From: a virus
IMG/VR virus record: IMGVR_UViG_3300037424_002358
Location: 47,963-111,962 of that record
Strand: one strand, 5' to 3'
Length of the DNA stretch: 64,000 bases
The notes beneath the pieces are model-generated. The model saw nothing but the letters and a program-made list of their open reading frames with translations. It did not search any database and was not told where the DNA came from. Position numbers and translations under genes: made by a program. Of this stretch, positions 1 through 23,116 are shown one piece after another (position 1 is the stretch's first letter; each line of letters begins with the position of its first letter).

Positions 1-1277
1 GTGGATCGAATCGACTCGCCGTGCTCATGTCCGGCGATGTTCGTGAGGACGGCACCGAGGACGGCCCACGAGTCGGTGTCGAGAAGAACGCCCCTCGACC
101 TCGAGAGGAACGCGTGGGCGTCGGCCAGCGTCTTGGCCCCGCCCAGGTATCCGCGCGTCTCCATCGTGCCCGTCACCACGGGCTTCTCCTCCCCCATCAT
201 CGGCTGCATCATCGCCTCGCCCTCGGCGGGCGCTGACGGGGGCGTGGCCGCGGCGTCCTCGGCCTTCATGACAATCGCACCTGGGTCGATGGCCCGCTCG
301 GTCAACTTTCGCGCCCGGCGTTCCAACTCCTCGGCCATCTCGTCACCCACGATGGAAGCGGCGTCGCCGCGCTTGCTGGTCATGGACCTCTCCTCCAACG
401 CAATCTCGGTGTCGTTGTAGGCGGGCATCCTCGTAAGCGCTAGGTGCACAAGTTGGCCCGCACGATAATGCTTCTCGCCGACGCCACGCTCGCAAAGGTC
501 GCAATGGTCGACGAGCGAACGGCGCTGGAAGGCACCGTGTGGGCCGTGATCGTGGCCCCAATCGACGAAGGCAATGGAAATACGCGTGCGCTGCTCGGGC
601 GGGATGCCCGCCTCAATGTCGCGCTTGATCGTCCCGTAGGCCGCCTCGGCCAGAGGCGTGTCGCGGAAGTAGCCCCGGGCCTTGAAGGTCGACCCGTCGA
701 TATACTCCTTCTCCGTGTCGCCGACGATCCCGAAGCCGTCCATGTCCAGATAGTGGGCCACGCCGAGATAGGGGTGCCCGCCCTTCCAGGATGGCGAGGC
801 AAACAGTTCGGGGGCAGGCTCGTTCTTCTTGATCCGCTGGATGAAGTCGCGGAAGAGGTCGATAGTCATCCACTCGCCGTACGCATCCCGCTTGACGCCG
901 GACGAGGTGGCGTACCAGCGCTTGCGCCCGTCTTTGTCGGGCGCGACGCGCGTGATGTACAGGTCGAGGTGGGCAGGCTGAGACATGACCGCGAGCGTCT
1001 GGGCGGAGACGGAGGGCTGGCGGCCGTCGGACAGCGCCGGGGTGAACTCGTCGCAGTAGTCCTCGGGCATGGGCGATATGTCCACCAGCATGCAGATCGG
1101 TTCGGTCTGGCCTTCTGTCAGTCCGGCGCCGACGAAGTAGCGGCAGTCGCCGCATGACAAGCCGGGTATGCCCCCGCCGCGCCGGAAGCCAGCCTCGCCG
1201 GGGGTCAACTTCTTCGTGCCGGGTCCGAGCGAAGTCTGGCCCGTTACGCCATCGCGGAGGGTCAAGGCTTCAGTCAT
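1..1277 (-). CDS. Prohead (capsid maturation) serine protease, HK97-like fold, with N-terminal Cys4 domain and probable C-terminal scaffold region; partial, runs off left edge
   Basis: Not in the ORF track; translated by hand from ATG 1277 (overlaps stop of 1270..1806), open to position 1: MTEALTLR...RDAYGEWMT...VAHY...RISIAF...LVHLALTRMPAYNDTEI. These match the HK97-type protease D-x-x-GE, His, Ser (SI) and L..xSxV..PAY motifs. Located in the head module. Confidence 0.8.
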   Translation of the reverse strand, partial: MTEALTLRDGVTGQTSLGPGTKKLTPGEAGFRRGGGIPGLSCGDCRYFVGAGLTEGQTEPICMLVDISPMPEDYCDEFTPALSDGRQPSVSAQTLAVMSQPAHLDLYITRVAPDKDGRKRWYATSSGVKRDAYGEWMTIDLFRDFIQRIKKNEPAPELFASPSWKGGHPYLGVAHYLDMDGFGIVGDTEKEYIDGSTFKARGYFRDTPLAEAAYGTIKRDIEAGIPPEQRTRISIAFVDWGHDHGPHGAFQRRSLVDHCDLCERGVGEKHYRAGQLVHLALTRMPAYNDTEIALEERSMTSKRGDAASIVGDEMAEELERRARKLTERAIDPGAIVMKAEDAAATPPSAPAEGEAMMQPMMGEEKPVVTGTMETRGYLGGAKTLADAHAFLSRSRGVLLDTDSWAVLGAVLTNIAGHEHGESIRS

Positions 1278-1806
1278 TCTTCCTGTACCACGATCCAGGC
1301 GTGGCCTGGAGTTTGGCGATATGCGAGGCAATACCTGCGGACGTGTAGGGAGATGGCCCGCCCCCTCCGCTGACCCCGCGCACGTGTTCCCGCCACTGAG
1401 CGGCGTTCACTTCACTTGTGGGACGGCTGACCAGTTCGTCCCTAACAGCCTCCACGAAATCGGAGTCGTAGTGCTTGGCGTTCATGGCAATGTGTAGCAG
1501 GGCTTCCGTCTCCGCCGTTGAGACGGCATGACCGCCCTGCTTGCTCGTTCCCCTCGACCAAATCCCCTGAATGTTATTGGCAATCTGAGCCGTCATGCTG
1601 AAGTTGCCAGGTCCGCCGACGGGTGTGCCCGCGGGTCCGCCGCCAGCGTTGCCAGCGCCACCGCCGCCCGGAGCGCTCCCCCCCACCTCGCCAGGGCGCC
1701 CCGCGTGGCCGAAATGTCCCGATCCGGGGCCTCCCCGGACCACGCCTAGTTCGGGGAGGTCCCGGACCACAAGGTGCAACGGGTGGACGTGCTTGTGGAT
1801 CGTCAC
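1270..1806 (-). CDS. Head-associated protein carrying one GGPGSGHFGH tag plus an unknown cargo domain
   Basis: GVVR-GGPGSGHFGHAGRPGEVGGSAP at aa 24-46; translationally coupled between the ChaB gene and the protease. Confidence 0.75.
   Translation of the reverse strand: MTIHKHVHPLHLVVRDLPELGVVRGGPGSGHFGHAGRPGEVGGSAPGGGGAGNAGGGPAGTPVGGPGNFSMTAQIANNIQGIWSRGTSKQGGHAVSTAETEALLHIAMNAKHYDSDFVEAVRDELVSRPTSEVNAAQWREHVRGVSGGGGPSPYTSAGIASHIAKLQATPGSWYRKND
1669..1737 (-). repeat. Tag repeat copy 12 (RGGPGSGHFGHAGRPGEVGGSAP)
   Basis: Direct translation. Confidence 0.95.
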
Positions 1807-1808
1807 GG

Positions 1809-3044
1809 TCAGATGCGCGGGTCGCCGAAGCGGCGCTCGCCTTCCGGGATTTGGACGGCGAGCGAGAGTGCCACGCCGCGGGTCATCTCGCGCAGGTTCC
1901 AGTCAATTGTGCCGGACCGGCGGACGAGGACGGCCCGCTGGAGTAGGTAGCCATCGGGCGAGTCGACCCAACGCTGGAAGATGTACTCCTCCGGCCGCGT
2001 GGGGTTCGTGATCGCCTGCCAGCCCTCGTCCATGCTCTTCTCGACCGCCTCCTCGTAGGAGCGCAGGACGGTGCGCTCCTGGACGAGATAGCCGATCGTG
2101 CGCTGCTGGAGCGGGCGGGCCATCCACGCGTTGGAGTTGACGTTGTCGGGCCGGCGGGCGATCCGGTTGGCGAAGCCGCCGTCGAGCATCTTCTGGTCGG
2201 CATCGGCCTCGACCTCACGCTGCCGGGCCGCCAGCGACTTCTCTTCCTCGCCGCCCCACTCGGGCGACATGTCCTTCATCGCGCCGAGTTGGCGAGCCCG
2301 CTTGCGAAGGTGCGCCTTCACCTGGCCGCGCTTCGCCTCCGGGGCGCGCCCGTAGGACTGGACGCCGTCCATGAGGTCTTCGCGGTCGGCGATGGGGTAA
2401 GACCCATCGGGAAGCGCCCAGCCCCTCTTCGCGTACTCGGCCCGCTTCTCCGGCGAGTAATCCTTGCGGATCACCAGCGGGAGCGACAAGTCGAGGAAAT
2501 CGTTGCGATGCAGGCGCCGAGCGGTCAAGGATTTCTCCTCCATCGGCTTCTCCCCCGGCGCTTCTTCCTGCGCCGGCTCCCCCTCTTCCTCCTCGCCCTC
2601 CTGACCTCCGGCGATGGCTGCGTCGGCCTGTTCGAGGGCGCAGCCCACCGGGTCATCCGTCTTCACACACTCACCCAGCAGGGCGGCGGCAAACGCGTCG
2701 CGCCACTCCTGCGAATACCTCGGGTCCTGATTGTCGGACTCTTCCTCTTCCGGCTCAGCGGCCTCTTCCTCCGGCTCGGCCAGGTTGCTCACGTTCCCGT
2801 TCTTTTTCTCTTCGGCTTTCTTCCCCTTGTCGAGCCACGGCGGAGGTCCGGCCCGCTTCACCCATTCGCCTTGCTCGTTCTTGCGGTAGTCGTTCTTCAC
2901 CGCCGACCAGGCAATGGAGGCCGCGCACGCATCCCGGTCGTCGCGCTTGGCGCAGGTGCCGTCGTAGGCACCCAGGAAGGCCGACCGCCATATCTCGGCG
3001 GCGTGGCCTTTCAGCACCGAAGGAACGGTGACCGTCTCGGGCAT
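1809..3044 (-). CDS. ChaB-domain head-associated multidomain protein (ChaB + acidic linker + ALPDGSYPI domain)
   Basis: HAAEIWRSAF...AWSAVKNDYRK...GEW is the ChaB signature. WALPDGSYPIADREDL...GRA...HLRKRARQLG resembles a domain seen in phage capsid-maturation proteins. Likely start is MPETV at 3044 after GGGAG. Confidence 0.7.
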   Translation of the reverse strand: MPETVTVPSVLKGHAAEIWRSAFLGAYDGTCAKRDDRDACAASIAWSAVKNDYRKNEQGEWVKRAGPPPWLDKGKKAEEKKNGNVSNLAEPEEEAAEPEEEESDNQDPRYSQEWRDAFAAALLGECVKTDDPVGCALEQADAAIAGGQEGEEEEGEPAQEEAPGEKPMEEKSLTARRLHRNDFLDLSLPLVIRKDYSPEKRAEYAKRGWALPDGSYPIADREDLMDGVQSYGRAPEAKRGQVKAHLRKRARQLGAMKDMSPEWGGEEEKSLAARQREVEADADQKMLDGGFANRIARRPDNVNSNAWMARPLQQRTIGYLVQERTVLRSYEEAVEKSMDEGWQAITNPTRPEEYIFQRWVDSPDGYLLQRAVLVRRSGTIDWNLREMTRGVALSLAVQIPEGERRFGDPRI

Positions 3045-3110
3045 GGGCCTATTCTCCCTACCGTGATTGTAGACAGAATGCAAGGGGATTGCCCGCACTT
3101 TCGCGCCGCC

Positions 3111-3140
3111 AAAAGGAAGGCCCCCGGTGGTCCGGGGGCC
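3111..3140 (-). terminator. Rho-independent terminator
   Basis: GGCCCCCGG-ACCA-CCGGGGGCC stem followed by TTCCTTTT on - strand, ending the accessory block. Confidence 0.75.
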
Positions 3141-3170
3141 ATGGCTTCGGGCTGGCGGAGGCGTGGCTGG

Positions 3171-3458
3171 CTAGGCGGTCAGTAGCCCGGACTGCCGATG
3201 GAAGACGTGTCTGGCCTCGGCGCTGGCTAGGCGGAGCGTCCCGACGTACTCCCAAGTGTCGAGCGATCCTTCTCCTCCGGGCGCGTCCTCTCCGTCGGCA
3301 ACGACAGCGAAGACGTGGCTGACCGTCGGCTTGCTGTCGTCCAGGAGCATCCAGACCGTGAAGAGCGCGGGCGTCCCGTAGAAGCCGACGCAGATGGGCC
3401 TCGCCCCCTGAGGCAACTCGAGGACCGGAACGATGGCGAATGGCTTGATCGTCGTCAT
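3171..3458 (-). CDS. Small conserved phage protein, paralog of 35302..35580
   Basis: LP.GA..I.VG...VW.L.D...F.V...G....YVGT....HVF pattern shared with 35302..35580. Confidence 0.55.
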   Translation of the reverse strand: MTTIKPFAIVPVLELPQGARPICVGFYGTPALFTVWMLLDDSKPTVSHVFAVVADGEDAPGGEGSLDTWEYVGTLRLASAEARHVFHRQSGLLTA

Positions 3459-5889: not shown

Positions 5890-6094
5890 CGCGAACCTCC
5901 TTGGCGAGGGTGGCACCAGCAAGGGTTCTTAGTACCACCAGTCTACGCCGCCTGACCCGCTCACATCGGGATGTGCGCGAAAGAAGGCCGCCCAATAATG
6001 TCCCTCCCGTACCTCCTCGTGGTATCTCCATGCCAGCCATAGGAACAGAAGGGCAAAGCACGCCATCAAGGTGACCATCTAAGCGCCCTCCGGC

Positions 6095-7116: not shown

Positions 7117-7168
7117 GCGGAGGTTCCCCTGTAGGCGGGGGGAGGAGCACCGAAGAGGAACTGTTGGG

Positions 7169-7831
7169 TCACGCGTTCCGCCAATGGGCTGACTTCAAGC
7201 CACGATACTTATTCCGATCACTCATGTATCTTCGGAACTCATCGCCTGTCATGTTGCCTTTGACGACGTTGCAATTGGCGCAGGACGCTACCGTATTGTC
7301 GGGCTTATCTGACCCCCCACGGCTTGTAGGGATCACGTGGTCGACATGCCAACCGTCAACAAAGGTCAGCGGCTCATGACAGTACGCGCACTGACCATCG
7401 GAACGAGCGTAGCACGTGAGACGCCTAAGAAAGACTCGCGTATTGTCCACCTGACCGGGCCAGTCCTTAGTCACAATCGTTCGCATCAGGAGGCGTTCTG
7501 CACGCGCTTCCGCCTTCCGCTTTTTCTCATGGGCCTCACGACGCTCTTGTATGGTTCGTTGGTGGCCACCCCAAAGTCTAGCGACGAGCGCGTCAATATC
7601 ATCTGCGCTTTGCGCGTATATGAAGAACCAATCGTGGTAGTTATTTTGGGCCAACGACCACCGGATGAGACGTTCTACTCGGGCAATGGCCCTCGCCGCC
7701 ACCAACATCCAGTCCTCGGGCAGTTCGGATAGGCGACCGGGTTCTACGACTACTTCTGTGCGCGGCTCACCATCCTCTATTCTCACGCCGAGTGCGATCC
7801 CCGGAAGGATAGCCGTGCTCCATTCGCGCAT
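7169..7831 (-). CDS. HNH endonuclease
   Basis: CAYC...HVDHVIP..RGG...N...SC..CN..KG; probably leaderless from ATG 7831. Confidence 0.85.
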   Translation of the reverse strand: MREWSTAILPGIALGVRIEDGEPRTEVVVEPGRLSELPEDWMLVAARAIARVERLIRWSLAQNNYHDWFFIYAQSADDIDALVARLWGGHQRTIQERREAHEKKRKAEARAERLLMRTIVTKDWPGQVDNTRVFLRRLTCYARSDGQCAYCHEPLTFVDGWHVDHVIPTSRGGSDKPDNTVASCANCNVVKGNMTGDEFRRYMSDRNKYRGLKSAHWRNA

Positions 7832-7838
7832 AATTTGC

Positions 7839-7868
7839 ATTGTACCTTATACGGTACTAGGCTGTCAA
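7839..7868 (-). promoter_or_regulatory. sigma70-like promoter with operator TACCGTATAAGGTA
   Basis: TTGACA-18-TACAAT on - strand; operator at 7843-7856. Confidence 0.8.
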
Positions 7869-7880: not shown

Positions 7881-8603
7881 CTACTCCCCCGCCCACTCCG
7901 GTAACGGATTCAGCGGCCCGGCGAACGTGAGCGGATGAGCCATCGCGGGGATGAAGCCGCTCTCGCGGTAGAAGGTGACCTTGCGATCAACCCGCGCCGG
8001 ATCATCCCAGGAGTAATGCAGGAGGCACAGTGGGGGGAGGATGTCCAGCACCCGGTGGCTCAGGTGGACGTCGCCGAGGACGGTGTCGCCGACCCGGAAG
8101 TCGTAGGCGGGCGGCTTATCTACCGTCCAGAAGTCCAGCGGTCCCCGCCACGCCCAAAGGCTCGGCTCCCACCGCTCGTGCGCCGGCTCCGGCTTCGCCA
8201 TGTGCGGGAAATGCTGGTCGGTCCCCCACAGGTAGAGCCGCACGGCCAGGGCGAAGTCGGCGTCGGTCCCCTCGAGCAGATCGCGGCCCGCCTCCCGTAG
8301 CAGTCGGTTGGGGCGGCAGTCGCAGTCGTCGTACACAATCCAGTCGGGGGCAAGTTCGTTGGCGCAGGCGATGAGGTGGTTGGCGTGGCCGGAGTCGTTG
8401 TTGCGCCAGAGGCCGTTAGCGAGTTGCACACGCTCGCCGAATGGACGAAGCAACACGTTGGGGAAGCGCGAGGCAATGGAAATCGTGTCGTCCAGACTCC
8501 CCCCGTCCGAGACGATGACCTGGTCGGCCCACCGATAGGACTCGCAGAACGGGCCGATCCTGCGGGACTCGTCGCGGGTGCGGACGATGACGACGATCTT
8601 CAT
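7881..8603 (-). CDS. Glycosyltransferase family 2
   Basis: VIVRTRDE...DGGSLDDT...DxD (DDCD). Confidence 0.8.
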   Translation of the reverse strand: MKIVVIVRTRDESRRIGPFCESYRWADQVIVSDGGSLDDTISIASRFPNVLLRPFGERVQLANGLWRNNDSGHANHLIACANELAPDWIVYDDCDCRPNRLLREAGRDLLEGTDADFALAVRLYLWGTDQHFPHMAKPEPAHERWEPSLWAWRGPLDFWTVDKPPAYDFRVGDTVLGDVHLSHRVLDILPPLCLLHYSWDDPARVDRKVTFYRESGFIPAMAHPLTFAGPLNPLPEWAGE

Positions 8604-8688
8604 AGGGGAAACGCCTCCCCGCCGCTCGGGCGGTCTGATTACCGGCCAAACGTCAAGGGACGGAGCCACGGACGGCGAAGCGCAATGC

Positions 8689-9016: not shown

Positions 9017-9748
9017 TCACCTCGGGCAAGCCAGGCAGTGCGGGTGCCACGCCCGGCCACCGGGCTGCGCCAGCCGGGCCTGGATCGCGGCGTGGACGCC
9101 GTTCCAATGCTCGGCCAGAGGAACCTCGGGGAAGGTCCCGAGGTTGAAAATCCCGATCATGTCGTCGCAGCAGAGGAGGTACTGCCGCCGGTGGTTGATG
9201 ATGAGCCGCATTGCCGGCTCGATGCACGGGTGGCCCGCGTGGGCCTTCGCCAGGGCGACGACGTCGAACTTGGGCGAGAAGTGGGTCGGGATGTGCTCCG
9301 ACATGGTGATGATCTGCGCCTCGGTATGGTGGAAGAGGGTGCGCATCCAGGCCGCCCGTTCGCTCTTCATCGGCTCGTCCATGTAGAGCGTGATGATAAT
9401 CCGGTCGAGGACCGGATCGAGCGCCGCCGCCAGTTCGGGCGTCAGGTAGTCACCGTTCGTGTTGAAACCGACGCGTTTGAACTTCCCGTGGCGCCGGACC
9501 TCGGCCGCGATCTCGACGATCCGCTCGTCCATGAGCGGCTCGTTGTAGTGTGACAGCCACACGCCGCCCGAGAAGCCCATGCGGACGGCCTGGTCGAGTG
9601 CCTCGCCGATCACGTCCACCTCGAGGTAGTGCGGCTCGAACCACGAGGCCACGGCCTCGCGGTCAGGGATCGAGTTGCGCAGGCAGGTCGGGCAGCGGCG
9701 GTTGCACGACGAGACAGTTTCTAGGTCAAGAAATTGGAACAGGCTCAC
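9017..9748 (-). CDS. Radical SAM protein with SPASM/twitch domain
   Basis: CNRRCPTC; NEPL; NTNG; C-terminal C...CC..D...LG...CxxC. Confidence 0.85.
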   Translation of the reverse strand: MSLFQFLDLETVSSCNRRCPTCLRNSIPDREAVASWFEPHYLEVDVIGEALDQAVRMGFSGGVWLSHYNEPLMDERIVEIAAEVRRHGKFKRVGFNTNGDYLTPELAAALDPVLDRIIITLYMDEPMKSERAAWMRTLFHHTEAQIITMSEHIPTHFSPKFDVVALAKAHAGHPCIEPAMRLIINHRRQYLLCCDDMIGIFNLGTFPEVPLAEHWNGVHAAIQARLAQPGGRAWHPHCLACPR

Positions 9749-11412: not shown

Positions 11413-12723
11413 TCACGGCAGGATGCCCTCGGCTCGCAGGAGCGCGTCCGTTTCCTTCCAGAAGGCGTCAATCTCCTCCCGGCTGAGGCCGGACGTGCTG
11501 ACGAAGGCGCCATGCGGCAGCCCCGGATCACCCCGGAAGAAGAACTCCTCGGGCACTTCCTGCTCCAACTTGATGTCGTAGTCCTCCATGTGCGTCACGA
11601 GTGGCGTGCCAGGGAATGGGATCAGGCGGTCGAAGCCGGCCCGCTCAGGTCGATGTTTGAGAATCCAGTCGCGGGTGCGCTCCATGCTCTCGCGCGTCTC
11701 GCCCGGCAGGCCGAGGATGAAGGACATCTTGAGCGTGATCCCGAGTTCCTTGCACCAGCGCAGCACGTCCTCGTCCTGCTCGATGGTCGTGCCCTTGTGG
11801 ATGTTTGCCTTGATCCGGTTGTCGGCGCTCTCGACGCCGACGAAGCACTCGATCAGCCCGCCTTCGCGCAAACGCTCCATGTACTCCCGCCCGCCGTACT
11901 TGGCGATGATGTCGGAGCGCAGGAAGCAGCGGTAGACTAGGCCCCCATACTTCCGGTGCAGGTCCAGCAGCGCCAGCGTCCGCGGTCGGTTCAGCGGCAT
12001 GATGTCGTCGTAGTAGGCTAACCCGGTGAAGCCCATCTCGACGATCTCGCGTATCTGCTGTTCGACGGAGTCGACGGACTCATAGCGCACGCGGTCGCCC
12101 CAGATGACGCCGTGCCGGCCACTCTCACAGAACGCGCAGGCCATGGGGCATCCGCGAGTCGTGAAGAGCGAGGCCATCCGGTGCTTGAAGCCGACACGGT
12201 CAGCCATGTACGAGTGATAAGCGAGGTTCCAGCGGCGGATGGGGGGTAGCACCCAGTCCAGATCGCGGCGGAGCATCGGCATGAACAGTCGATCGCCGGA
12301 CGCCTGTGCCAGTTCGAGGGTCCTGGCGACCGTGTCCGGGTGGTCGCCCTCGCCAGCGACAACCAGGTCGAAGGGGCGCCCGGAGCCGTCCGCTCCTACG
12401 GCCAGCGCAGCCGAGGGGTTCGCCCAGGGGGCGGCACCACCGAACACGGTCCGAGACTTGGTCCACCCGTCCATTGCTCGGGCGATCCGCCGCACCTCGA
12501 ACATCTGCGGCGAGGTGGCCGACAGCCACACCTGGTGGAAATCCCCGTCTTCCATCGGCAGCCGGTGGCCATCCCACTTCGGACTGGTCAGCGACATGTC
12601 GAAGAACTCGACCTCGTGCCCCTGCGCCTCGAGTTGGGCGGCGATATACCACAGCCCCAGCGGGGGCCAGACCATGGGGTCGGTGAGGAACGTGGACGGG
12701 GGGAACAGGAGGGCGACGCGCAT
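11413..12723 (-). CDS. B12-binding-domain radical SAM protein (class B-like)
   Basis: PPLGL..IAA.L N-terminal B12-binding domain; TTRGCPMACAFC; GVES; FILGLPGET. Confidence 0.9.
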   Translation of the reverse strand: MRVALLFPPSTFLTDPMVWPPLGLWYIAAQLEAQGHEVEFFDMSLTSPKWDGHRLPMEDGDFHQVWLSATSPQMFEVRRIARAMDGWTKSRTVFGGAAPWANPSAALAVGADGSGRPFDLVVAGEGDHPDTVARTLELAQASGDRLFMPMLRRDLDWVLPPIRRWNLAYHSYMADRVGFKHRMASLFTTRGCPMACAFCESGRHGVIWGDRVRYESVDSVEQQIREIVEMGFTGLAYYDDIMPLNRPRTLALLDLHRKYGGLVYRCFLRSDIIAKYGGREYMERLREGGLIECFVGVESADNRIKANIHKGTTIEQDEDVLRWCKELGITLKMSFILGLPGETRESMERTRDWILKHRPERAGFDRLIPFPGTPLVTHMEDYDIKLEQEVPEEFFFRGDPGLPHGAFVSTSGLSREEIDAFWKETDALLRAEGILP

Positions 12724-12733
12724 TAGTGCGAAG

Positions 12734-12742
12734 AGTCTAGCA
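12734..12742 (-). promoter_or_regulatory. Extended -10 element (TGcTAGACT)
   Basis: 10 nt upstream of ATG 12723; a second TGgTAGACT lies at 12944-12952. Confidence 0.45.
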
Positions 12743-12959
12743 GAAATTCCGTTGCGCGGAGGCATCTTACGCGCCCGGAATGACCACGGGCCCGTGTGCA
12801 ATCACAGGCCCGTGCGCGTTCTCGCCCCGTTTGCCTTCCCGCTAGGGCTTGGTCGAATTCAACGACCACCGTGTAGGACGCCGCTTTCGCCAGCGCGTCG
12901 CCCGTGGGGCCGGGGCAGCCGCGAGGAGGCTCCTCAGCCAGCGAGTCTACCACAAAGGC

Positions 12960-14527: not shown

Positions 14528-14556
14528 AGTATATACCGCCTGCGGTACCATGTCAA
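14528..14556 (-). promoter_or_regulatory. sigma70-like promoter with operator TACCGCAGGCGGTA
   Basis: TTGACA-17-TATACT on - strand; operator at 14534-14547. Confidence 0.85.
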
Positions 14557-15380
14557 GGGGTCACGACGGTCATTTTCGCCCGGAAATCTCTGCGGGTCGT
14601 GAGCAGGCCAGCCTGGGCTAGTTCTTCCGCCAGCCCCGCCAGAGCGGCCCGGTGCTGGCCCTCGCCGAAGCCCCACTCGGCGACGGCGGCGACCCGGAGG
14701 AAGACGCCGGTATCGGAGCGGCCCCACGTCCAGCCGCTCACGCCGAGGTCCTGCGCGGCAGCCTCAATGGCGGAGCGCAGGTCGGGCGTCAGCGGCGTCC
14801 AGAACTCCAATTCGCTCACGGGTTCGCCCTCGCCCTCGCCAGCCGCCTCCATGATAAGGACGCTCTCCTGCCCGAACATCTCGGCGGTATCCCGCAGAAG
14901 TTCCAGCGCTTCGCCGTCCCCGCGATAGCCGACGACCCAGGTCGGCTCGTGGGTGACCTCGCCTGTGTCCTGGCGCGTGTAGCCGCCGACGCCCGGAGCC
15001 ACGGTCACATACGAGACCGTGGAAATCTCCCGTAGCCGTTCCCCGAAGACTCGCATCTCCTGAAAGACCTGCTTGGCGGGGATGCCTGGCTTAGCGGACG
15101 TGATCCCGACGGCCTTCGGCCCCGGCCCGCCTCCGGGCTGACTGCCCCCCACCTCGCCCGGACGCCCCTCGTGTCCGAAGTGCCCTGATCCAGGGCCACC
15201 ACGTTCTACGCCGAGAGGCTCCGGGACGATCTCGAACGGGCCGTCGTCCATCGTGATGAGATGCCCGCCCACCTCGACCGTTTCGCCCTCAGTCAGGCGG
15301 ACGAACTGCGCGCCGGTCACCTGCGTCCGGCTACCGCTGTAGCGCTCAGCACCTTCGTAGCGGTCCATGATGAAGCCCAT
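14553..15380 (-). CDS. Tag-bearing protein with SAM lyase (T3 SAMase-like) cargo domain
   Basis: Tag at aa 60-82, then ITSA...GGY...HEPTWVV...FGQESVLI, matching the SAM-lyase SA / GxY / E / (W/F)xQ(D/E)xVL pattern as recalled. Confidence 0.65.
   Translation of the reverse strand: MGFIMDRYEGAERYSGSRTQVTGAQFVRLTEGETVEVGGHLITMDDGPFEIVPEPLGVERGGPGSGHFGHEGRPGEVGGSQPGGGPGPKAVGITSAKPGIPAKQVFQEMRVFGERLREISTVSYVTVAPGVGGYTRQDTGEVTHEPTWVVGYRGDGEALELLRDTAEMFGQESVLIMEAAGEGEGEPVSELEFWTPLTPDLRSAIEAAAQDLGVSGWTWGRSDTGVFLRVAAVAEWGFGEGQHRAALAGLAEELAQAGLLTTRRDFRAKMTVVTP
15135..15203 (-). repeat. Tag repeat copy 11
   Basis: RGGPGSGHFGHEGRPGEVGGSQP. Confidence 0.95.
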
Positions 15381-18300
15381 CAGTTCACCTTCTCGCGGCC
15401 GTAGAAGCGCACGACCTCCGGGTGGTCAATGGAAAAGCGCGTCATGACCTCGTGACCATGATTGGTCTCGGCCCACGACCTGAGACTGCTGTCCGCCGTG
15501 ACTTGCGGTTGCCACTCGTCGTATACGCTCCGGTCCGCCGAGCCGTAGGCATCCGCGATCTTTCCGGTGTCCCATCCCGCGCGTCCGGCTGCATTCTCTG
15601 CCGGCTGGAAACGGTAGAGCCAGCGATTGCCAGCGTAGTCCGTCCCGACAGCCCTGATCTCGGCCAGATGATTCTTGCAGGCGAATATGATGTCCTCAGG
15701 CGAGAATGCTCTGCCCGATGGATGGGAATGCGTCAGCGTACTGCCCCTCATGGTCGCCTGCTCTTCGTCAGTCCAAAATATCCCGGCGCCCTTGGGGTCA
15801 TCCCAGCCCGTGCCGATCTTCTCAATGAGGACTTCGCCAGAGGCATCCACGGCGTAGGCTTTCTCCGCATCGTCGTGACCACGCGAGTATAGATCACTTT
15901 CGGCGGAGCGGATCGCTTCCTGCGCGGCCGATGATGGATCAAACTGGACTCCGACGTATTCCCGCTCCTGGTAGGTCTTGAGACCCTCGCCGATCAGCGA
16001 GCCGCCGGAACCGACGACTTCCCGCATGCCTCCGCCCCCTGGCACGCTTCCGCCCACCTGGCCGGGCCGCCCCTCATGTCCGAAATGGCCGGAGCCTGGC
16101 CCGCCGCGGATGATCCATTCCTCCGGGTAGTCGGATGGGTCGTCGACCGATATGATCTCCTCGACGGGGCCGTTGTACGGAACGCGCACGTAGTGAGTTC
16201 GGCGGGCAGCCTTGAACTCCACCTCGCCCTGCCGGCGCTCCACCCTGGCCCGGATCGTCTCCAACATCGCCGACCTGTCCCTGCGGTTGTTCTCGTTCAT
16301 CTCGGCCATCGGCAAGATGCCCGTCCCGAGGAGGTCGGACGCATGGCTGAACCGGAGGAAGTCGTCCCTGCCGTTGAGGTAGGACGAGATCAGGTCGGCC
16401 CGGTACTCGTCGTCCCGGCTCGACTCCTTGTACGGTGATATGGCGGCCAGCGACACGAGGTAGCGATACTCCCCCTTGGCGAGGCTGTCCGTGAACACGT
16501 CGTCGAGTTGCAGGGCGTAGTCGACTAGGTGCCCGACCTCGTGGCCGAGCGTGTCGTTGTACACGTCGGAGCCGATCGTGCGGGATGCCTCCAGCCATTC
16601 GTCGAAGCCGGGAAACTTCCCCGGCACGTGACCTCTGACCTTGTCGCCGAAGTCGGGGTTCAACCACAGCATGGCACGGTTGTCGGCCCTGTTGTAGGCT
16701 GCCAGCCCCCACACATTCCCCCACACCTCCGCCACCGCGGCCCTGACCTCGTCGTATTTCTCCGGCGGCGTCGGTTTGAAGTCAATCAACTCTTCCCGCA
16801 GGAAGTCGTTGAGGGCGACGGGGTCGTCCGTCAGGCGAAGCCCGCGTAGCCGCAGGTTCAATTTTCTTTCGGCCCTCTCGACCATTCCCTGGACCGCAGC
16901 CGCCGTCTCGGGGTTGCCGAACACGTAGCGGTTGCCGCCGATCCTGCGCTCCTCCGGTGGGCCTCCGCCTCCGGGTGCGCTCCCGCCAACCTCACCAGGG
17001 CGCCCCGCGTGACCAAAGTGACCGGAGCCGGGGCCACCGCGCATGGTGATGCCGACAGCCTTCTCGAAGGCGCGCAGGCTGTCCCCCCCGATCAACTGGC
17101 CCGATGGCGTCATGAACTCGAACTCCGGCGAGATGTCGCCGGAGAGGACCATGTCGCGGATCGCCCGCCGCTGCGCCGCCGTCTGCGGGGGCCGGCCCTT
17201 GAAGGCCAGGATGACATTCACCGGCCCCTCCCGGGCGTCCTCGTCCACCGCGATGAAGCCCGAGTCGTACATCACCTGGATCACCGTATCCAGGAACACG
17301 TCCGGGAGATTGCGCGCCTCGCCCTCGGCATCCTCAAACGCCTCCTCCAGTCCCTCTATCGGCTCCTCATCGAGGCCCGCCTTGCGGATGGCATCGGCGA
17401 AGGCCGCGTCGTGGTTGCCGAAGCCAGTCTCGAAGACTCTGCCGTCGGGCGACACGAGCCATCCGTTCATGCTCCGGTGGCCGGGCACGAACGGACTCTC
17501 ATGCGGCGAGAAGGCGTCGGCGACTGCTCGGCGGAAGTTATATAGATAGCCCTCGTTCCATTCCTGCGTGATGCCAGCGCCCGCGCCCGGCGCACTTCCG
17601 CCGACCTCACCAGGGCGGCCCTCATGTCCGAAGTGGCCCGAGCCCGGGCCACCTCGCTCTAGGATCTCCAGCGGGATGAAAATACGGCGCGGCCGGAGGC
17701 GGCAGACGGCCCGGACGGACAGGCTCTCCTCCTCGAGTTGCTCACCCGGCCAGAGGATGTCCATGAAGTCGTCCTCGTACTTGTCCCACCATTCGTCGGC
17801 CCTGCTCGTTACCAACTCGTTGTAAGAGGTTTCCAGGTCCCCCCCCGTCCTGTGGCTCAATACCCACGTCGCGAACCACGTGACAAAGTCGTCGCCATAG
17901 ACGAATGCCGTGGGTCGGACAACTGAGGAAGTTGTGTAATCCCCCTCCTCTGGACCCTTGCCTCCGATCTCCTTCCCCTCGGTCCCAAATTCAATATCCC
18001 CATTAGGCCCAATCTCCGCGGCGTAGGCCATCCCGCCTTCCGATCCGGTCCATGCTATCTCGGCATCGCGCACCGCGTCCGGGTCAATGACCGCCACCAG
18101 CGCATCCTCGCGCAACTGTTCGAGCGGCGGCCAGATTGCGCTCCCCTGAGTCCAGTTCCAGTCGCCGCCCCGTGCAATGACACTCTGCGCCATGGCCGCG
18201 GTGATTGCGGCCATGGCGGGATCGTCGCTTACCCCGTCATGAGCCTCGGGCGAACCCGGTCTCATCTCATCGTCATAGGAGGGATAAGCGTTCGGTCCAG

Positions 18301-21300
18301 CCAGGTAGGTTAGGGAGTCAGGTTCGCCCATCTGACCCGCGGTGCCTTTTCTACCCGTGTAGACGTTCGATACCCAATTGCCCACCTGCGGTAGTAGGCC
18401 ATGCTCAACGATGCTCTCGAGGTGATCCCGGAGCGTGCCGTGGAAGAACAGCCTGGGGCCTACCTGATTGGGCTTCAGCGACGCGGGCACTTTGACCGTC
18501 CCGCCCGCGCTCGGTGCGCTTCCTCCGACCTCACCGGGCCGACCCTCGTGCCCGAAGTGACCTGAGCCAGGGCCACCACGGAGGGCGAGACCTGCCCACC
18601 ACGGTAGCGGCTTCGGCGTCCAGCGGCGCCCGACCAGCGCACTCGTGAACTCTCTATCGGGCCATCCTGTCACGACGCCGGAGTCGGCGATTGCTCCGAA
18701 GGGTCTACCCTCCGGGTTCACGCGCTCCCAAACGACGCCCTTGTCCGCGTCGGGAACATCCGCCTCCATCGTGTATCGAGCAATCGACGCCAGAACCGAA
18801 CGCTGGTCGTCCGTCGGTGTGAGGTTCCGATCCCACATGATGCCGACGTAGTTTTCCCGACCTGCGCTCCCTCGACTGACACGGATGAACCCGTGGGCAG
18901 TGAAGAGTCCCTCGCCTGTCGCGCTCGGCACGCCATGCGCGATGAGCGTTGCCGACGACCGCTCCATTGCATCCTGCTTCGCCGCCTCAAGGGTCGCAGA
19001 TGCTACGACGCCGTGGGGCAAGCCATATTCCTCCTGCAGTCTGTCTATCCAGCCGGATGGGCGGTATGTGTAGGGCCAATCGCTTCCTGGCTCGTTCGTG
19101 ATGCGCCCGAGGCGGAGCGACCCGTTTGCGGACTCATACTCGACAAAGACAGCGGGGTTGTCAGGCGGATAGTCTGGATCGGGCGGGAATGAGTATTGAG
19201 CCTTGGTTTCCTCTGGAAGAACGGTCGAGTAGTAGGCCACGAGCGCATTCATCGCGGCCTGCTCGTGGCCCTTGCCCTCGACATTGAAGATGGTGCCATC
19301 GGGCGCAAGCCAGAACTCCCCGGAGTTGGCTTCCTCGCGAGTGAGTTTCATGGCTTCCTCCGCGAGGACCTGCTGGAGGCCTTCTATGTCAGCCCGCGAG
19401 AACTTGTGTCCCTTGAAGGCGGTGTCATTGAGGCGCGGGCTGAGATGACTCGCGTACTTCGTCCCCTGCTCCGCAACCCCGCCGCCGCTTGGCGCGCTCC
19501 CGCCTACCTCCCCTGGCCGACCCTCATGCCCGAAGTGACCACTACCGGGACCGCCGCGCTCCTCAAGGGTCCGCCGGAAGTAATAGCGTCTGCTCTCCTT
19601 GAAGCCTGCCGCCTCGTCCCGCGGATCGTTGCCTCTCATGCCTACTGCGATGAAGCCGCCCGGTCCGTCAATGAGATAGTCGCTTCCAGTCATCGCGGTC
19701 AATGGCGTATAGGAACCCGACGTTATCACGACGCGCTCTTTCGCTTCGCCGAGAACGCGCCGGGCAATAGCCACTGCCTGCGACTTGCTGTATTCGTTGT
19801 AGCGCGATGTGGACCATTGGAGGATGCGTCCGAGTGCTGCCCCACTCAGGCGAAGCGGATTGGCCTGGCTACCAGGGCCACCTGCGTAGTGCGGGCCATA
19901 TTCGGCAAGCCTTCCCCCATCGGAAGCAGCATCGCCCGGTGCGCTCCCGCCAACCTCGCCTAGCCGACCCTCATGCCCGAAGTGGCCGGAGCCTGGCCCG
20001 CCGCGGGAAACGATAGATCGCGTGCGCAAGAGCGAGTCAACGCCCGATCCGTGAGGCCCATGTTCCAGGTCGACCGTTGCGCCTCCCGCCATCGGATGCA
20101 GAACGATGTCCCACGCCTCCCATGGGAGAATCTCAATGAGCCGCGGAATCTTCCCGGCCATCTCTGAGATGCGGCTTGCTTGCTCGTCGGTTATCTTCGC
20201 GCCGCCAGTCGACACTCCCTGTGTGCCCGACGTGCTCCATCGCACGAGGCCGAGTCCGAGCATGATGCCCTCGTGTGAGAAGTGCGCACCAGGGATGAAA
20301 CCGCTCGGCTCGACGCCAAAGAATTTCTTGAACCTGTCCGATAGGACGCCAGGATGCTCAAGAGCCGATTGGGCTGAACGGTCGTGACTCTCTACCTCGA
20401 CAACCGTTCCATCCCTGAGCAGCCAGTAGTCGCCAAAGCCTATGTGCGAGGGGGAGACTGTTGGAGGATATACATCTCGGATATGCCCCGCCTCGCGTTC
20501 CCTAAAAAGCGCCTCGACCTTGTCCCGGATGGCAGGAAACTCGCTGGCGATCTGGCTTTCCTTGAGCGATGGCGCAATACCAGCCATGCTCTCACCGTAG
20601 CGGGGCTGTGCCTCTGCCGTCGTCGCCCCGCTACCCGGCGCACTTCCGCCAACCTCACCAGGGCGACCCTCGTGCCCGAAGTGGCCCGATCCGGGGCCAC
20701 CGCGCTCAATGACGCTCCTCAGGAGACGTGCGCCCTCAGGTCCTATCTGGTGTTCGTCGACCACGGACTCGACGCCCGGATTGACGGCCAGGATATCCTT
20801 GATAGTGTTCACGACTCGCCGACCCACTTCGGGCGAAGCCTCAATCCCGAGACCGTTGGGCCACATAGACGTGAGGCGGGCAAAGCCATGCGCGAACATC
20901 CAGTCGGACGCCTCGCCGAAACCCATGTCGCCGAGGCCCGCGTCGGCTATCGAGACGCTTGCCGACTCGTGGTGCAGGGCCGACAGGCTGATGTCGGTCA
21001 AGTTGCCGTCGGGCCTGATCCAGAATCGCGCCGCCGTGCCCTTGAGCCTGACTGCCGTCGGATCAGCGGTGCCGTAGCGGCCAGCCATGGCGTCCGCGAC
21101 CTTGGCAGCAACTCCGCTCGGCTGCGACCCCCCGATCTCCCCTAGTCGCCCCTCATGACCGAAGTGCCCGGAGCCGGGACCGCCGCGCTGGGCGTAGCCC
21201 GCCGACCCGCCGTGACGCTCCGTGAAGTGCGATGAAAGAGTTGATAGAATCTGGTCGCCACTCGGCCACCAATCGTTCGGCGAGAGCGTCAGAGTTGCCA

Positions 21301-23116
21301 TGACCTCGTCGGCTGTCGTATTCTCCAGGTCATCGGTGAACTCGAAAACTGTATCCCGGCCATCGGACTGTACAGCGGCGTCCATCAGAGTGATGACTGA
21401 GTTGCGAAGTGCTGGCGAGATTGGCCGCGGAAGGTCTATGCCATAGCCTCGACGGCTTACCCGCATGCCATCGTCTATGGCATGCCAGCCAGTAGGCCAT
21501 CTGCCGACGCGGGCCAAGCCAGCCGAGACGAGGCGCATTTTGTCGTCGACACTTTCCTCCTGCTCGGCTATTGTGCGAGGCCAATGTCCATGAAGGGCAA
21601 AGAAGCCCACATCCTCGTGGTTGGCGTTCTGGGCTAGGTACGTTCCATCCGACCCGATATACGAGGCATCGAGCGGGTCCGATTTGCCGAACTCGTCCTC
21701 TATTCTCCCCGTCAAGACTCTTCCTTCCGGTAGCGTCATCCCCGGTGCGCTTCCACCCACCTGCCCCGGCCGCCCCTCATGACCGAAGTGCCCGGAGCCG
21801 GGACCGCCGCGCAGTTCTAGGCCAGCGACGCGGGCAAGTTGTTCTGTGTCACCGCCATGAGGCCAACTGGACAAGCCGCGGTTGAAATTGGCCTCGTACT
21901 TCACTTCCGTGTCGCGGTTGGCGAGAAGATAATCCGTCAGCGTACTCCTGGCGGCGCGCGTAAGCGGAGTCCAGAAATCGAGGGCGATCCGACGGTTGTA
22001 GACATTGGTCACGCGTACGAAGCCGAGTGCGCGCATGGCCTGGAGCCAACGCTGTGGATCGCTCTGATCGCCGGATGGCAGATCGGCCTTCTTCAGAGCC
22101 TCAGCAGCCGCGTCGGCATGGGTATCTTCTAGGCCGCTCTCACGTGGACGGATGGAAATCGCGCGTCCGTCTGGAGCAATGTAGCCGTCGAACATGGAAC
22201 CGGGTTTGACCGTAAACTCGCCATGTCCACGGGCACTCACCATTGCATCAGCGACTCGGACGGCCTTTGAGCCGTAGCGTCTCTCTGGCTCGCGCGTGGA
22301 TGCTCCCCCTCCGGGCGCGCTACCCCCGACCTCACCAGGGCGCCCCGCGTGGCCGAAGTGGCCCGAACCGGGGCCGCCGCGCATCACCGTCAGCGCCTCG
22401 CCGAGCAGGAGAGGACGCCTAGACCCATTCAGGAAGACGACCTCGCCGCGTAGCGCCGCCGCGATCTCCGAACGTCCCACGGCGACCCTGTGCCCGTTGC
22501 GCTGTCCAGGCCACACGTGCGGCCCGCCCCGCTCGACCAAGGCCCGGTCACCGGCCATCATCGGCAGGTGCACCGTCCTGACGCTGTCGTACTCGTCGCG
22601 GGACACAACCACGCCGCGGGCTGGCAGGTGGAACGGCAGGACGCCGGGTGCCAGAGCGGTTAGGCCATCCAGGTTGCTGTCAGGTGCCATGTCCGTAAGG
22701 AGCGACACATGCGGGATGTATCGGGCCGGGTTGGAAAAGTCGTTCGCGTCGGGCGTGCAGCCGTTCTCCAACGCGAGCCGGTAGAGGTCGGACTGGAGTC
22801 GGACGAGCGCCGGGTCCGGGGCTACGGACAGCGCCAGCGCGCCGCCCATCTGAATCGGCTCGACCAACTCGACCCTGAACATCAGCGGCAGGCCGAGGTT
22901 GTTCCAGATGCGTTCGAGCGCCGTATCCTCGGCCCCGTCGAGGTAGACGAGACTGCAATGGAAATGGGCCGGGTTGAGCCGGTCGCAGGATATGCCGCGC
23001 CGCCTCAACTCGGCCTCATACAGCGCACTCAAGTTCGCGAGCGTGGGATCGTTCGGGAAAGCGAGGTAGACGAACGCGGCGTGGCCGACCGCCCGCCGCA
23101 TGATCGGCAGCGCCAC
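15380..23116 (-). CDS. Giant tag-punctuated polyprotein: 2H phosphoesterase + 10 tagged cargo domains (6x PDG-H-GFxR, 1 unknown, ART, zincin, JAB)
   Basis: Open frame 15380..23323; real start probably GTG 23116 or ATG 23101 because 23134..23436 is a separate gene. Motifs: HCS/HVS (2H), FHGT..SI..GL.P (ART), HEVGH (zincin), THSHPS..FS..D (JAB). Confidence 0.85.
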   Translation of the reverse strand: MALPIMRRAVGHAAFVYLAFPNDPTLANLSALYEAELRRRGISCDRLNPAHFHCSLVYLDGAEDTALERIWNNLGLPLMFRVELVEPIQMGGALALSVAPDPALVRLQSDLYRLALENGCTPDANDFSNPARYIPHVSLLTDMAPDSNLDGLTALAPGVLPFHLPARGVVVSRDEYDSVRTVHLPMMAGDRALVERGGPHVWPGQRNGHRVAVGRSEIAAALRGEVVFLNGSRRPLLLGEALTVMRGGPGSGHFGHAGRPGEVGGSAPGGGASTREPERRYGSKAVRVADAMVSARGHGEFTVKPGSMFDGYIAPDGRAISIRPRESGLEDTHADAAAEALKKADLPSGDQSDPQRWLQAMRALGFVRVTNVYNRRIALDFWTPLTRAARSTLTDYLLANRDTEVKYEANFNRGLSSWPHGGDTEQLARVAGLELRGGPGSGHFGHEGRPGQVGGSAPGMTLPEGRVLTGRIEDEFGKSDPLDASYIGSDGTYLAQNANHEDVGFFALHGHWPRTIAEQEESVDDKMRLVSAGLARVGRWPTGWHAIDDGMRVSRRGYGIDLPRPISPALRNSVITLMDAAVQSDGRDTVFEFTDDLENTTADEVMATLTLSPNDWWPSGDQILSTLSSHFTERHGGSAGYAQRGGPGSGHFGHEGRLGEIGGSQPSGVAAKVADAMAGRYGTADPTAVRLKGTAARFWIRPDGNLTDISLSALHHESASVSIADAGLGDMGFGEASDWMFAHGFARLTSMWPNGLGIEASPEVGRRVVNTIKDILAVNPGVESVVDEHQIGPEGARLLRSVIERGGPGSGHFGHEGRPGEVGGSAPGSGATTAEAQPRYGESMAGIAPSLKESQIASEFPAIRDKVEALFREREAGHIRDVYPPTVSPSHIGFGDYWLLRDGTVVEVESHDRSAQSALEHPGVLSDRFKKFFGVEPSGFIPGAHFSHEGIMLGLGLVRWSTSGTQGVSTGGAKITDEQASRISEMAGKIPRLIEILPWEAWDIVLHPMAGGATVDLEHGPHGSGVDSLLRTRSIVSRGGPGSGHFGHEGRLGEVGGSAPGDAASDGGRLAEYGPHYAGGPGSQANPLRLSGAALGRILQWSTSRYNEYSKSQAVAIARRVLGEAKERVVITSGSYTPLTAMTGSDYLIDGPGGFIAVGMRGNDPRDEAAGFKESRRYYFRRTLEERGGPGSGHFGHEGRPGEVGGSAPSGGGVAEQGTKYASHLSPRLNDTAFKGHKFSRADIEGLQQVLAEEAMKLTREEANSGEFWLAPDGTIFNVEGKGHEQAAMNALVAYYSTVLPEETKAQYSFPPDPDYPPDNPAVFVEYESANGSLRLGRITNEPGSDWPYTYRPSGWIDRLQEEYGLPHGVVASATLEAAKQDAMERSSATLIAHGVPSATGEGLFTAHGFIRVSRGSAGRENYVGIMWDRNLTPTDDQRSVLASIARYTMEADVPDADKGVVWERVNPEGRPFGAIADSGVVTGWPDREFTSALVGRRWTPKPLPWWAGLALRGGPGSGHFGHEGRPGEVGGSAPSAGGTVKVPASLKPNQVGPRLFFHGTLRDHLESIVEHGLLPQVGNWVSNVYTGRKGTAGQMGEPDSLTYLAGPNAYPSYDDEMRPGSPEAHDGVSDDPAMAAITAAMAQSVIARGGDWNWTQGSAIWPPLEQLREDALVAVIDPDAVRDAEIAWTGSEGGMAYAAEIGPNGDIEFGTEGKEIGGKGPEEGDYTTSSVVRPTAFVYGDDFVTWFATWVLSHRTGGDLETSYNELVTSRADEWWDKYEDDFMDILWPGEQLEEESLSVRAVCRLRPRRIFIPLEILERGGPGSGHFGHEGRPGEVGGSAPGAGAGITQEWNEGYLYNFRRAVADAFSPHESPFVPGHRSMNGWLVSPDGRVFETGFGNHDAAFADAIRKAGLDEEPIEGLEEAFEDAEGEARNLPDVFLDTVIQVMYDSGFIAVDEDAREGPVNVILAFKGRPPQTAAQRRAIRDMVLSGDISPEFEFMTPSGQLIGGDSLRAFEKAVGITMRGGPGSGHFGHAGRPGEVGGSAPGGGGPPEERRIGGNRYVFGNPETAAAVQGMVERAERKLNLRLRGLRLTDDPVALNDFLREELIDFKPTPPEKYDEVRAAVAEVWGNVWGLAAYNRADNRAMLWLNPDFGDKVRGHVPGKFPGFDEWLEASRTIGSDVYNDTLGHEVGHLVDYALQLDDVFTDSLAKGEYRYLVSLAAISPYKESSRDDEYRADLISSYLNGRDDFLRFSHASDLLGTGILPMAEMNENNRRDRSAMLETIRARVERRQGEVEFKAARRTHYVRVPYNGPVEEIISVDDPSDYPEEWIIRGGPGSGHFGHEGRPGQVGGSVPGGGGMREVVGSGGSLIGEGLKTYQEREYVGVQFDPSSAAQEAIRSAESDLYSRGHDDAEKAYAVDASGEVLIEKIGTGWDDPKGAGIFWTDEEQATMRGSTLTHSHPSGRAFSPEDIIFACKNHLAEIRAVGTDYAGNRWLYRFQPAENAAGRAGWDTGKIADAYGSADRSVYDEWQPQVTADSSLRSWAETNHGHEVMTRFSIDHPEVVRFYGREKVN
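16040..22381 (-). repeat. Ten dispersed in-frame 69-bp tag repeats (22313-22381, 21743-21811, 21119-21187, 20636-20704, 19937-20005, 19490-19558, 18512-18580, 17588-17656, 16973-17041, 16040-16108)
   Basis: Each encodes RGGPGSGHFGH[E/A]GR[P/L]G[E/Q][V/I]GGS[A/Q/V]P, with synonymous codon variation. Confidence 0.97.

Follow-up and report, generated by a model that had tools for sequence, protein, structure and literature searches.

A conserved header peptide punctuates polyvalent proteins encoded in the head modules of tailed phages

The window analysed here is a 64,000-nucleotide stretch (bases 47,963–111,962) of the 111,962-bp IMG/VR virus record IMGVR_UViG_3300037424_002358, a sediment contig that represents the genome of a tailed phage and encodes a large terminase, a portal-MuF fusion and virion proteins. 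Three genes of this genome encode copies of the same 23-amino acid peptide, here called the tag, and in the largest of them ten tags divide a giant protein into 11 units. The tag is real, is strongly selected and heads the modules of a known protein class, the polyvalent proteins, but the header peptide itself is apparently undescribed. We propose, with a probability of about one half, that the tagged proteins are polyvalent cargo made of swappable tag-headed modules, which would be cut at R|GG (the bar marks the putative cut) in the procapsid by the prohead protease of the phage itself and be delivered with the DNA. Coordinates are window positions unless a locus is named, and all features located in this way lie on the minus strand.

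The tag was located by a regular expression and a six-frame scan of the entire contig. R-GGPGSGHFGH[EA]GR[PL]G[EQ][VI]GGSxP was found in exactly 12 copies, all on the minus strand, and there is no 13th copy anywhere in the 111,962 bp. Ten copies fall in the giant open reading frame (ORF) at 15380..23323, one in a second tagged gene at 14553..15380 (amino acid 61) and one in a third at 1270..1806 (amino acid 25), as had been counted in a first-pass annotation of the window. The spacing of 447–978 nt given there also held: within the giant ORF the tags are at amino acids 316, 506, 714, 875, 1108, 1257, 1583, 1891, 2096 and 2407, which places them 149–326 amino acids apart. Tag 1 (the arginine plus 22 amino acids, residues 315–337) is at 22313..22381, tag 2 at 21743..21811, tag 3 at 21119..21187, tag 4 at 20636..20704, tag 5 at 19937..20005, tag 7 at 18512..18580 and tag 8 at 17588..17656. 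Across the 12 copies 18 of the 23 positions are invariant, and the sequences that flank them are unrelated.

The DNA of the copies reveals the level at which they are conserved. At codons that encode the same amino acid, 58% of third positions differ between copies, compared with the 61% expected from independent codon draws in this ORF; of the first and second positions only 5.6% differ, and one tag serine is encoded by AGT where the remaining copies use TCN. As the synonymous sites are saturated, selection must act on the peptide and not on the DNA, and the copies are old and have been kept by selection, so they do not derive from recent duplication, low complexity or misassembly. This bears directly on the possibility that the repeat is an artefact or a DNA-level feature such as an assembly chimera, a recent tandem duplication, a recombination signal or a low-complexity translation. 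In its favour, Logan unitigs from the source sample break at two tag copies. However, the third codon positions are randomised around an invariant peptide, the flanks are unrelated, contigs of three other, independent sediment samples cover the giant ORF piecewise with zero differences, and thousands of unrelated contigs bear the same peptide. The saturated synonymous divergence and the thousands of unrelated clusters with the tag refute this explanation, and the chance that it holds is negligible. The unitig breaks themselves are at tag copies 2 (21783) and 3 (21176), and short-read assemblies of such genes therefore tend to fragment at the tags. Among the public runs no RNA dataset holding the sequence was listed, and no virion data were found.

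To survey the tag more widely, a hidden Markov model (HMM) built from the 12 copies was searched against 1.84 billion cluster representatives. At E≤1e-3 it matched 3,352 protein clusters of uncultivated phages, a number that fell to 676 at E≤1e-10 and to 82 at E≤1e-30; a single representative held up to nine tag-matched stretches. In IMG/VR 193 tag places were confirmed on 70 loci. The consensus of 518 instances reads [K/R/L]-GG-[P]-GSG-[N/H]-[F/H]-GH-x-GRPG-[E/K/Q]-[V/R/I]-GGS-x-P and is followed by a spacer rich in Gly, Ser and Asp; variation is absent, or nearly so, at GG, GSG, GH, GGS and three single Gly positions. Prokaryote genomes are almost free of the tag: among 185,579 of them there are 8 loci, all 8 in metagenome-assembled genomes, and so no host could be assigned. 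Neither Pfam nor PHROGs holds a family for it, the HMM gave 0 matches to PDB sequences, and a literature search for the motif strings found no description in the papers covered.

The placement of the tag within proteins is asymmetric. The first tag lies a median of 41 amino acids from the N-terminus, often 7–41, and the leaders before N-proximal tags have a median length of 23 amino acids and a minimum of 4 (MRIK|GGPGSG). From the C-terminus to the start of a tag the distance is never less than 54 amino acids (median 299), and successive tags across the tagged proteins are a median of 224 amino acids apart. Because tags occur near N-termini and never near C-termini, each can be taken to head the unit that follows it. 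An AlphaFold2 (AF2) model of amino acids 2090–2647 of the giant protein predicts the two tags it contains, tag 9 (16973..17041) and tag 10 (16040..16108), to be disordered together with their spacers (pLDDT 22–36) and flanked by folded cores.

The units also behave as modules. In five tagged giant proteins every Pfam domain falls inside one inter-tag unit and none straddles a tag. Relatives of units 0, 5 and 10 of the giant protein are found at other positions in other tagged proteins, in a close relative units 8 and 9 are separated by an additional unit, and a domain resembling S-adenosylmethionine (SAM) lyase that has a single-tag gene to itself here is the terminal unit of polyproteins elsewhere. 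Units are thus shuffled or split between phages. Placement, domain boundaries and shuffling together uphold the proposal of the first-pass annotation that the tag heads domain-sized units, and in practice the tag defines module boundaries without fold prediction.

The tagged genes belong to a head module. The giant ORF sits directly downstream of a portal-MuF fusion of 869 amino acids (23976..26585), which was assigned from PHROG portal and head-morphogenesis matches, has homologues of 40–61% identity and carries no tag here; the large terminase subunit is at 26683..28290. The start of the second tagged gene overlaps the stop of the giant ORF, and the third sits immediately upstream of a gene for a 699-amino acid protein. 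In related phages the order is terminase, portal(-MuF), tagged genes, ChaB protein, tagged gene, 699-amino acid protein and 395-amino acid protein. The ChaB-domain protein is a head-module protein that is kept beside the tagged genes in these phages and is at 1809..3098 here, while the 395-amino acid protein is 65–75% identical between them and is probably the major capsid protein. The first-pass annotation had placed all three tagged genes between the portal-MuF gene and a prohead protease. PHROG and fold matches agree with that placement, although the second tagged gene is separated from the third by about 12 kb that holds radical SAM, glycosyltransferase, HNH and other non-head genes.

The same context recurs elsewhere. 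For 49 distinct contigs we took the two nearest untagged ORFs on the same strand at each side of the tag cluster. The upstream neighbours are overwhelmingly terminases, portals and MuF-type head-morphogenesis proteins, and those downstream are major and minor head proteins, MuF and head-maturation proteases, the last from seven PHROG families of which the largest has 11 members. The enrichment of the tag in head modules that the first-pass annotation anticipated is therefore found. Two contigs with unrelated portal families show a more compact arrangement, in which the portal is followed by one tag and a domain of about 140–150 amino acids (L043:4220-6160 and L068:8477-10501).

The 699-amino acid protein is encoded at G000:C1:47194-49293 as a prohead protease-scaffold gene, of which the N-terminal 443 residues are in the window (1..1331) and the rest continues beyond the window start. 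It has 116 homologues, and H193, S252, H260 and H262 are invariant. Its core (297-1034) gave no Pfam, PHROG or PDB sequence match, including phmmer against the PDB, and because sequence-only searches failed its identification needed structure. For an AF2 model of amino acids 100–345 (pLDDT 84.7) the best Foldseek match was T4 gp21 (5JBL, E=6e-4, probability 1.0), followed by the herpesvirus proteases (assemblins), and an ESM Atlas lead to Peptidase_S78 agrees with this. The modelled protein thus has the predicted fold of a prohead protease of the T4 gp21/assemblin type. Its N-terminal region holds a HiPIP-like four-cysteine domain (about 1038-1214; PioC E=0.002), which is replaced by ChaB in many of the homologues.

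Before the GG of the tag stands a source-specific residue: it is the majority residue of its own source in 90.6% of 670 tags, compared with 49% in shuffles (maximum 52%). There are two main classes, hydrophobic-x-[K/R]|GG and [R/K]-x-[L/A]|GG, with minor classes of Asp, Asn and Glu, and N-proximal tags are of the same class as internal tags in 66 of 83 proteins. Judged from these sequences, such variation would fit co-evolution with a source-specific partner. In the lineage with Arg, for which five protease sequences of related phages including L008 were compared, three conserved hydrophobic-x-x-R|small sites occur where prohead proteases usually cut. The first, xLEER|[S/A], is where the protease core ends, in a disordered loop; the second, RR|SVG, is at the protease C-terminus in 4/5 sequences and missing from L008; and the third, FVxR|A, falls in the probable capsid protein exactly at the boundary between a variable N-terminus and a conserved core. 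Tag 6 (19490..19558) is preceded by TLEER, which makes its P4–P1 residues identical to the LEER|S site of the protease. By analogy, a P3-x-P1|small pattern (Phi-x-P1, with Phi hydrophobic) fits what proteases of the gp21/assemblin family read. In phage SPN3US, gp245 cuts A/S/G-x-E and removes N-terminal propeptides of 20–254 amino acids, that of the portal included (PMC10052503).

It is the combination of a source-specific residue before GG, a gp21/assemblin fold in the neighbouring gene product and matching sites in the protease and capsid protein that leads us to propose a cut by the prohead protease at R|GG. This is the mechanism suggested by the first-pass annotation, and we consider it the best available hypothesis, with about even odds for the protease cut. 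The three tagged genes would encode capsid-internal polyvalent cargo in which every module is headed by a two-part junction. Part one would be a short source-specific site, here hydrophobic-x-x-Arg followed by Gly-Gly, that is cut inside the procapsid by the 699-amino acid protease encoded right after the third tagged gene. Part two, the almost invariant and predicted disordered 20-residue GGxGSG[HN][FH]GHxGRPGxxGGS with its Gly/Ser-rich spacer, would remain attached to every module at its N-terminus after release. Most likely it would be a docking or packaging signal, by which the precursor is drawn into the procapsid and the junction is exposed to the protease, or else a flexible leader that helps modules to leave through the tail. 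About 13 separate proteins would result and be delivered along with the DNA, among them 2H, JAB, zincin and SAM-lyase-like proteins, a possible ADP-ribosyltransferase (ART), four paralogues of an unnamed domain and others. Detection of a polyvalent protein in virions of phage phi24B (bioRxiv 10.64898/2026.04.10.717836) is an indirect precedent for packaging. We infer cleavage, the exact cut position, virion incorporation and injection from circumstantial evidence; a conserved header joined to a source-specific residue that looks like a cut site makes this a concrete hypothesis that is testable by sequence.

Several observations weigh against a cut of this kind. Thirteen tag positions are near-invariant although the proteases of these phages have diverged beyond sequence recognition, and since a protease site normally constrains two to four residues, cleavage alone does not explain them. 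Being short motifs, the Arg sites of the protease and of the capsid protein may owe their conservation to structure, and the choice of K or R at P1 may partly follow the G+C content of the genome. In phages of the Leu/Ala class, [RK]-x-[LA]|small sites in the downstream head ORFs are near the count expected by chance, with no enrichment. A search of 50,697 cultured phage records by tblastn with the giant protein and a 34-amino acid tag segment gave no match, although the low-complexity filter of BLAST may mask the tag. The cut could also be at the C-terminal edge of the tag instead of at R|GG. Finally, candidate alternative cutters are at hand, in that a zincin or JAB motif (JAMM, or HExxH in a tagged ORF) is present in 16/22 long loci.

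JAB enzymes cut after Gly-Gly, and GG is invariant in the 518 tags, which favours cutting of the polyprotein at its tags by peptidases embedded in it, with the zincin-like unit 9, the C-terminal JAB unit 10 or both as candidates, and not by the prohead protease. Unit 9 (16109..16972) has HEVGH with an Asp three residues on (HEVGHLVD) and a DDEYRAD motif, and the AF2 model of its core has a pLDDT of 62–83. Unit 10 (15383..16039) is a JAB/MPN+ domain with E...HSHPSG...S..D, a weak Pfam Prok-JAB match and a pLDDT of 60–92. Foldseek with the model of units 9 and 10 gave no match at E≤0.001; the best matches of unit 10 were BRCC36, RadC, JAMM1 and Rpn11, a consistent MPN-family list with all E>0.07. 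The full catalytic motifs of both units are conserved in homologues (15 homologous units in the case of unit 10), the JAB unit is last and directly behind a tag in the homologues listed, and the motif count in the long loci points the same way. Autoproteolysis by embedded metallopeptidases has moreover been argued for polyvalent proteins (PMC5512222). Even so, both motifs are missing from 6/22 long loci, and the surroundings of the portal-tag-domain fusions of L043 and L068 show no JAMM or HExxH motif either; in locus L008 the JAMM motif is on an untagged ORF. Characterised JAB peptidases also require a ubiquitin-like fold before GG, while the units upstream of tags are diverse (2H, zincin, ART-like and others) and nothing shows such a fold there, the C-terminal folds not having been modelled. 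Pro, a poor P1′ residue, follows GG in 65% of tags, and a source-specific P1 in a Phi-x-P1 pattern suits the gp21/assemblin family better. We therefore consider cutting by the embedded peptidases unlikely.

The length of the conserved peptide raises the question of whether the tags are cut at all. They could be disordered spacers with a binding function, which hold the cargo as beads on a string tethered to DNA, to the capsid interior or to the portal, or which bundle through five Gly-X-Y triplets and so keep the chain extended for passage through the tail. Twenty conserved residues are far more than a protease site needs, the tags are predicted to be disordered, their core reads as five Gly-X-Y triplets, and GRP with His and Arg nearby gives an AT-hook-like core. 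Compared with the long uninterrupted Gly-X-Y run of a collagen-like triple helix, the tag has only five triplets (GHF GHE GRP GEV GGS), and AF2 predicts disorder. A conserved partner would have to be common to very diverged phages, as DNA is. The polyvalent protein gp47 of phage phi24B was detected in virions in a paper that reports no gp47 processing (bioRxiv 10.64898/2026.04.10.717836). On the other hand, uncut spacers leave unexplained both the source-specific P1 and P3 residues before the tag, which occur even after leaders of 4–30 amino acids, and the tags directly behind portals. The motif is in no solved structure, and the resemblance to an AT-hook is limited to the three residues GRP. 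We regard uncut tags as rather improbable.

The conserved part may nevertheless have a role of its own beside cleavage. One tentative possibility, which we would not favour as it stands, is that the invariant 20-residue peptide is a universal address label for head cargo, read by something that very distant tailed phages share (the head protease or scaffold, the portal or the packaged DNA), and that it would load, and perhaps eject, any protein that bears it. If that were true, the tag would be a sequence key to the injected effector repertoire of thousands of uncultivated phages, a repertoire that includes the anti-defence domains Tad3, SAM lyase, 2H and ARTs, and it could be transferred to foreign proteins as a handle by which to load them into capsids.

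A further alternative keeps cleavage but moves the cut. The tag could be a removable propeptide of the T4 capsid-targeting type, with the cut at its C-terminal edge, behind GGS or within the Gly/Ser spacer, or with a cut on each side of it. The leader and tag would then be lost, and an internal tag would either be excised or remain as a C-terminal tail on the unit upstream of it. An N-proximal leader and tag of about 30–60 amino acids resemble the 20–24-amino acid N-terminal propeptides of SPN3US and the T4 capsid-targeting sequence (CTS), and the conservation stops sharply at GGS-x-P. The source-specific variation is however at the N-terminal edge and not at the C-terminal edge, and it is also the N-terminal edge that the R|small sites of the protease and capsid protein resemble. 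We consider removal of the tag very unlikely.

The carriers of the tag are polyvalent proteins, a class in which a single polypeptide of a phage or conjugative element combines 2–15 disparate domains (Iyer, Burroughs, Anand, de Souza and Aravind 2017, J Bacteriol; PMC5512222). Such proteins are thought to be the first weapons a phage delivers. They have been proposed to be packaged, injected and released by embedded peptidases, and the analogy to polyproteins has been drawn (PMC5512222). Like them, the proteins described here are giant, multi-domain and encoded beside portal/MuF head genes, as in the 49 tag contigs; the repertoire of 2H, ART, zincin, JAB/RadC, ParB, zeta-toxin, NUDIX and MuF domains is shared with the tagged relatives, and HEVGHLVD of unit 9 fits a feature of the MPTase clade, HExxH with an Asp three residues on (PMC5512222). 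The difference is in the junctions. PMC5512222 describes no repeated peptide between domains or at junctions and ascribes processing to embedded peptidases, whereas here an invariant header stands before every module, across several genes and onto portals, with a probable source-specific site for the prohead protease. The first-pass annotation had spoken of a new system. This was an overstatement, because packaging, injection and proteolytic release were already proposed for these carriers by Iyer et al. 2017; what is new is the conserved tag.

A mechanistic parallel comes from phage T4 (Mullaney & Black 1996, as cited in PMC10052503). There the unrelated cargo proteins IPI–III and Alt share a short N-terminal peptide that targets them into the procapsid and is cut by gp21 at Phi-x-P1, and the cargo is injected. 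A protease with a predicted gp21/assemblin fold is encoded in the same head module here, while targeting and cutting are only proposed for the tag. The two peptides have no sequence similarity, and the CTS, according to that citation, is upstream of the cut and discarded. In our case the leaders upstream of the tag are short and not conserved, and the conserved peptide is downstream of a variable P1 and thus of the putative cut; it is also twice as long, is repeated within polyproteins and is kept across very distant phages.

Encapsulin cargo-loading peptides, which are short, Gly-rich and disordered, direct unrelated enzymes into a shell of the HK97 fold, but they are typically C-terminal and uncut. 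The tag, in contrast, is never within 54 amino acids of the C-terminus, and no sequence resemblance to them was seen. In phages phiKZ and SPN3US a single prohead protease (gp175 and gp245, respectively) processes ejection and inner-body proteins and many others of the head, the portal among them, by cutting at one three-residue motif and removing N-terminal propeptides (PMC10052503, PMC5694885); this motif is A/S/G-x-E, is not accompanied by a conserved tag, and is found in separate proteins rather than punctuated polyproteins. The MuF polymorphic toxins of temperate phages have variable effector domains fused to MuF (Jamet et al. 2017, PMC5576092). They differ in having a single C-terminal toxin, in being carried by prophages and in that no junction motif is described for them (PMC5576092), while the tag is nearly absent from prokaryote genomes.

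The giant ORF encodes 2647 amino acids from a GTG start, while the database gene call has 2573 with its start at 23101. Among its 11 units the 2H, zincin and JAB assignments are supported and at least four units are paralogues of one unnamed domain, and no Pfam match was found for units 1–9 even at E≤1. The core of unit 0 (22613..22966) is 2H phosphoesterase-like, with a match to PF13563 (E=0.0019) that is below the cutoff; sixteen homologous units are found in other tagged proteins, and PF13563 or PF02834 occurs on many tagged giant proteins, some homologues of unit 0 included. Unit 7 (17657..18511) has an HGT motif, and a DarT/PARP cluster appears in the Atlas matches only at rank 15, which makes an ART a weak lead. 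Unit 8 (17042..17587) is an unnamed 'PDG...H' domain, and in a jackhmmer search of the local unit set with 42 matches overall it found units 1 (21812-22312; 3.5e-25), 6 (18581-19489; 1.8e-16) and 3 (20705-21118; 1.4e-9). This domain, W/I-x-PDG ... H ... GF-x-R, has no family match, is the commonest cargo unit here and recurs in 42 units of other tagged proteins. The first-pass annotation had called the recognisable units unrelated enzymes. This is only partly right, in that the ART and SAM lyase assignments are weak leads and units 1, 3, 6 and 8 are related to one another through the unnamed domain.

The second tagged gene encodes 275 amino acids, with a leader of about 58–60 amino acids, the tag at 15135-15203 and the SAM-lyase-like domain, for which the Pfam S-AdoMet_lyase match (E=0.0027) is below the cutoff and the assignment is a weak lead. 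Its leader (15204-15380) contains an element of the form hLxxDDGPFxI, which recurs 10–25 amino acids before tags in other phages (for example P0011, P0027, L041 and L071). The third tagged gene encodes 178 amino acids, with a 24-amino acid leader, the tag at 1669-1737 and a 130-amino acid domain without relatives.

Tagged giant proteins elsewhere carry ParB (PF02195), 2H (PF13563, PF02834), ART-PolyVal (PF18760), ADP-ribosyl exotoxin, MuF (PF04233) and zeta toxin (PF06414) domains, as well as NUDIX, GNAT, inteins, topoisomerase IB, portal domains and the Thoeris inhibitor Tad3. The tag therefore lets such cargo be found in metagenomes, in more than 3,000 clusters with ARTs, ParB, zeta toxin, NUDIX, topoisomerase IB and Tad3. 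One metagenomic tagged protein, P0019 (2443 amino acids), has Tad3 at amino acids 1652–1766 in the same inter-tag unit as MuF and a PARP-like domain, and the units adjoining it hold two ADP-ribosyltransferases. This set looks like anti-defence cargo in a tagged polyvalent protein.

The non-head genes between the second and third tagged genes include those for a B12-binding radical SAM enzyme (11413-12801), a second radical SAM protein (9017-9748), a glycosyltransferase (7881-8669) and an HNH endonuclease (7169-7840), and these have no counterpart in related loci. A modification of the tag by radical SAM chemistry, as in ribosomally synthesised and post-translationally modified peptides (RiPPs), was considered and rejected, since the radical SAM genes and their neighbours are not conserved in the related loci. 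Directly upstream of the large terminase is a BCS1-like AAA ATPase with BCS1_N and AAA domains (28507-29658). Outside the window, just downstream of the probable capsid gene, is a 436-amino acid virion structural protein (phrog_1645; G000:C1:44519-45829, equivalent to L001:14519-15829) with 35–36% identity to proteins of T4-like cyanophages and of Puniceispirillum phage HMO-2011.

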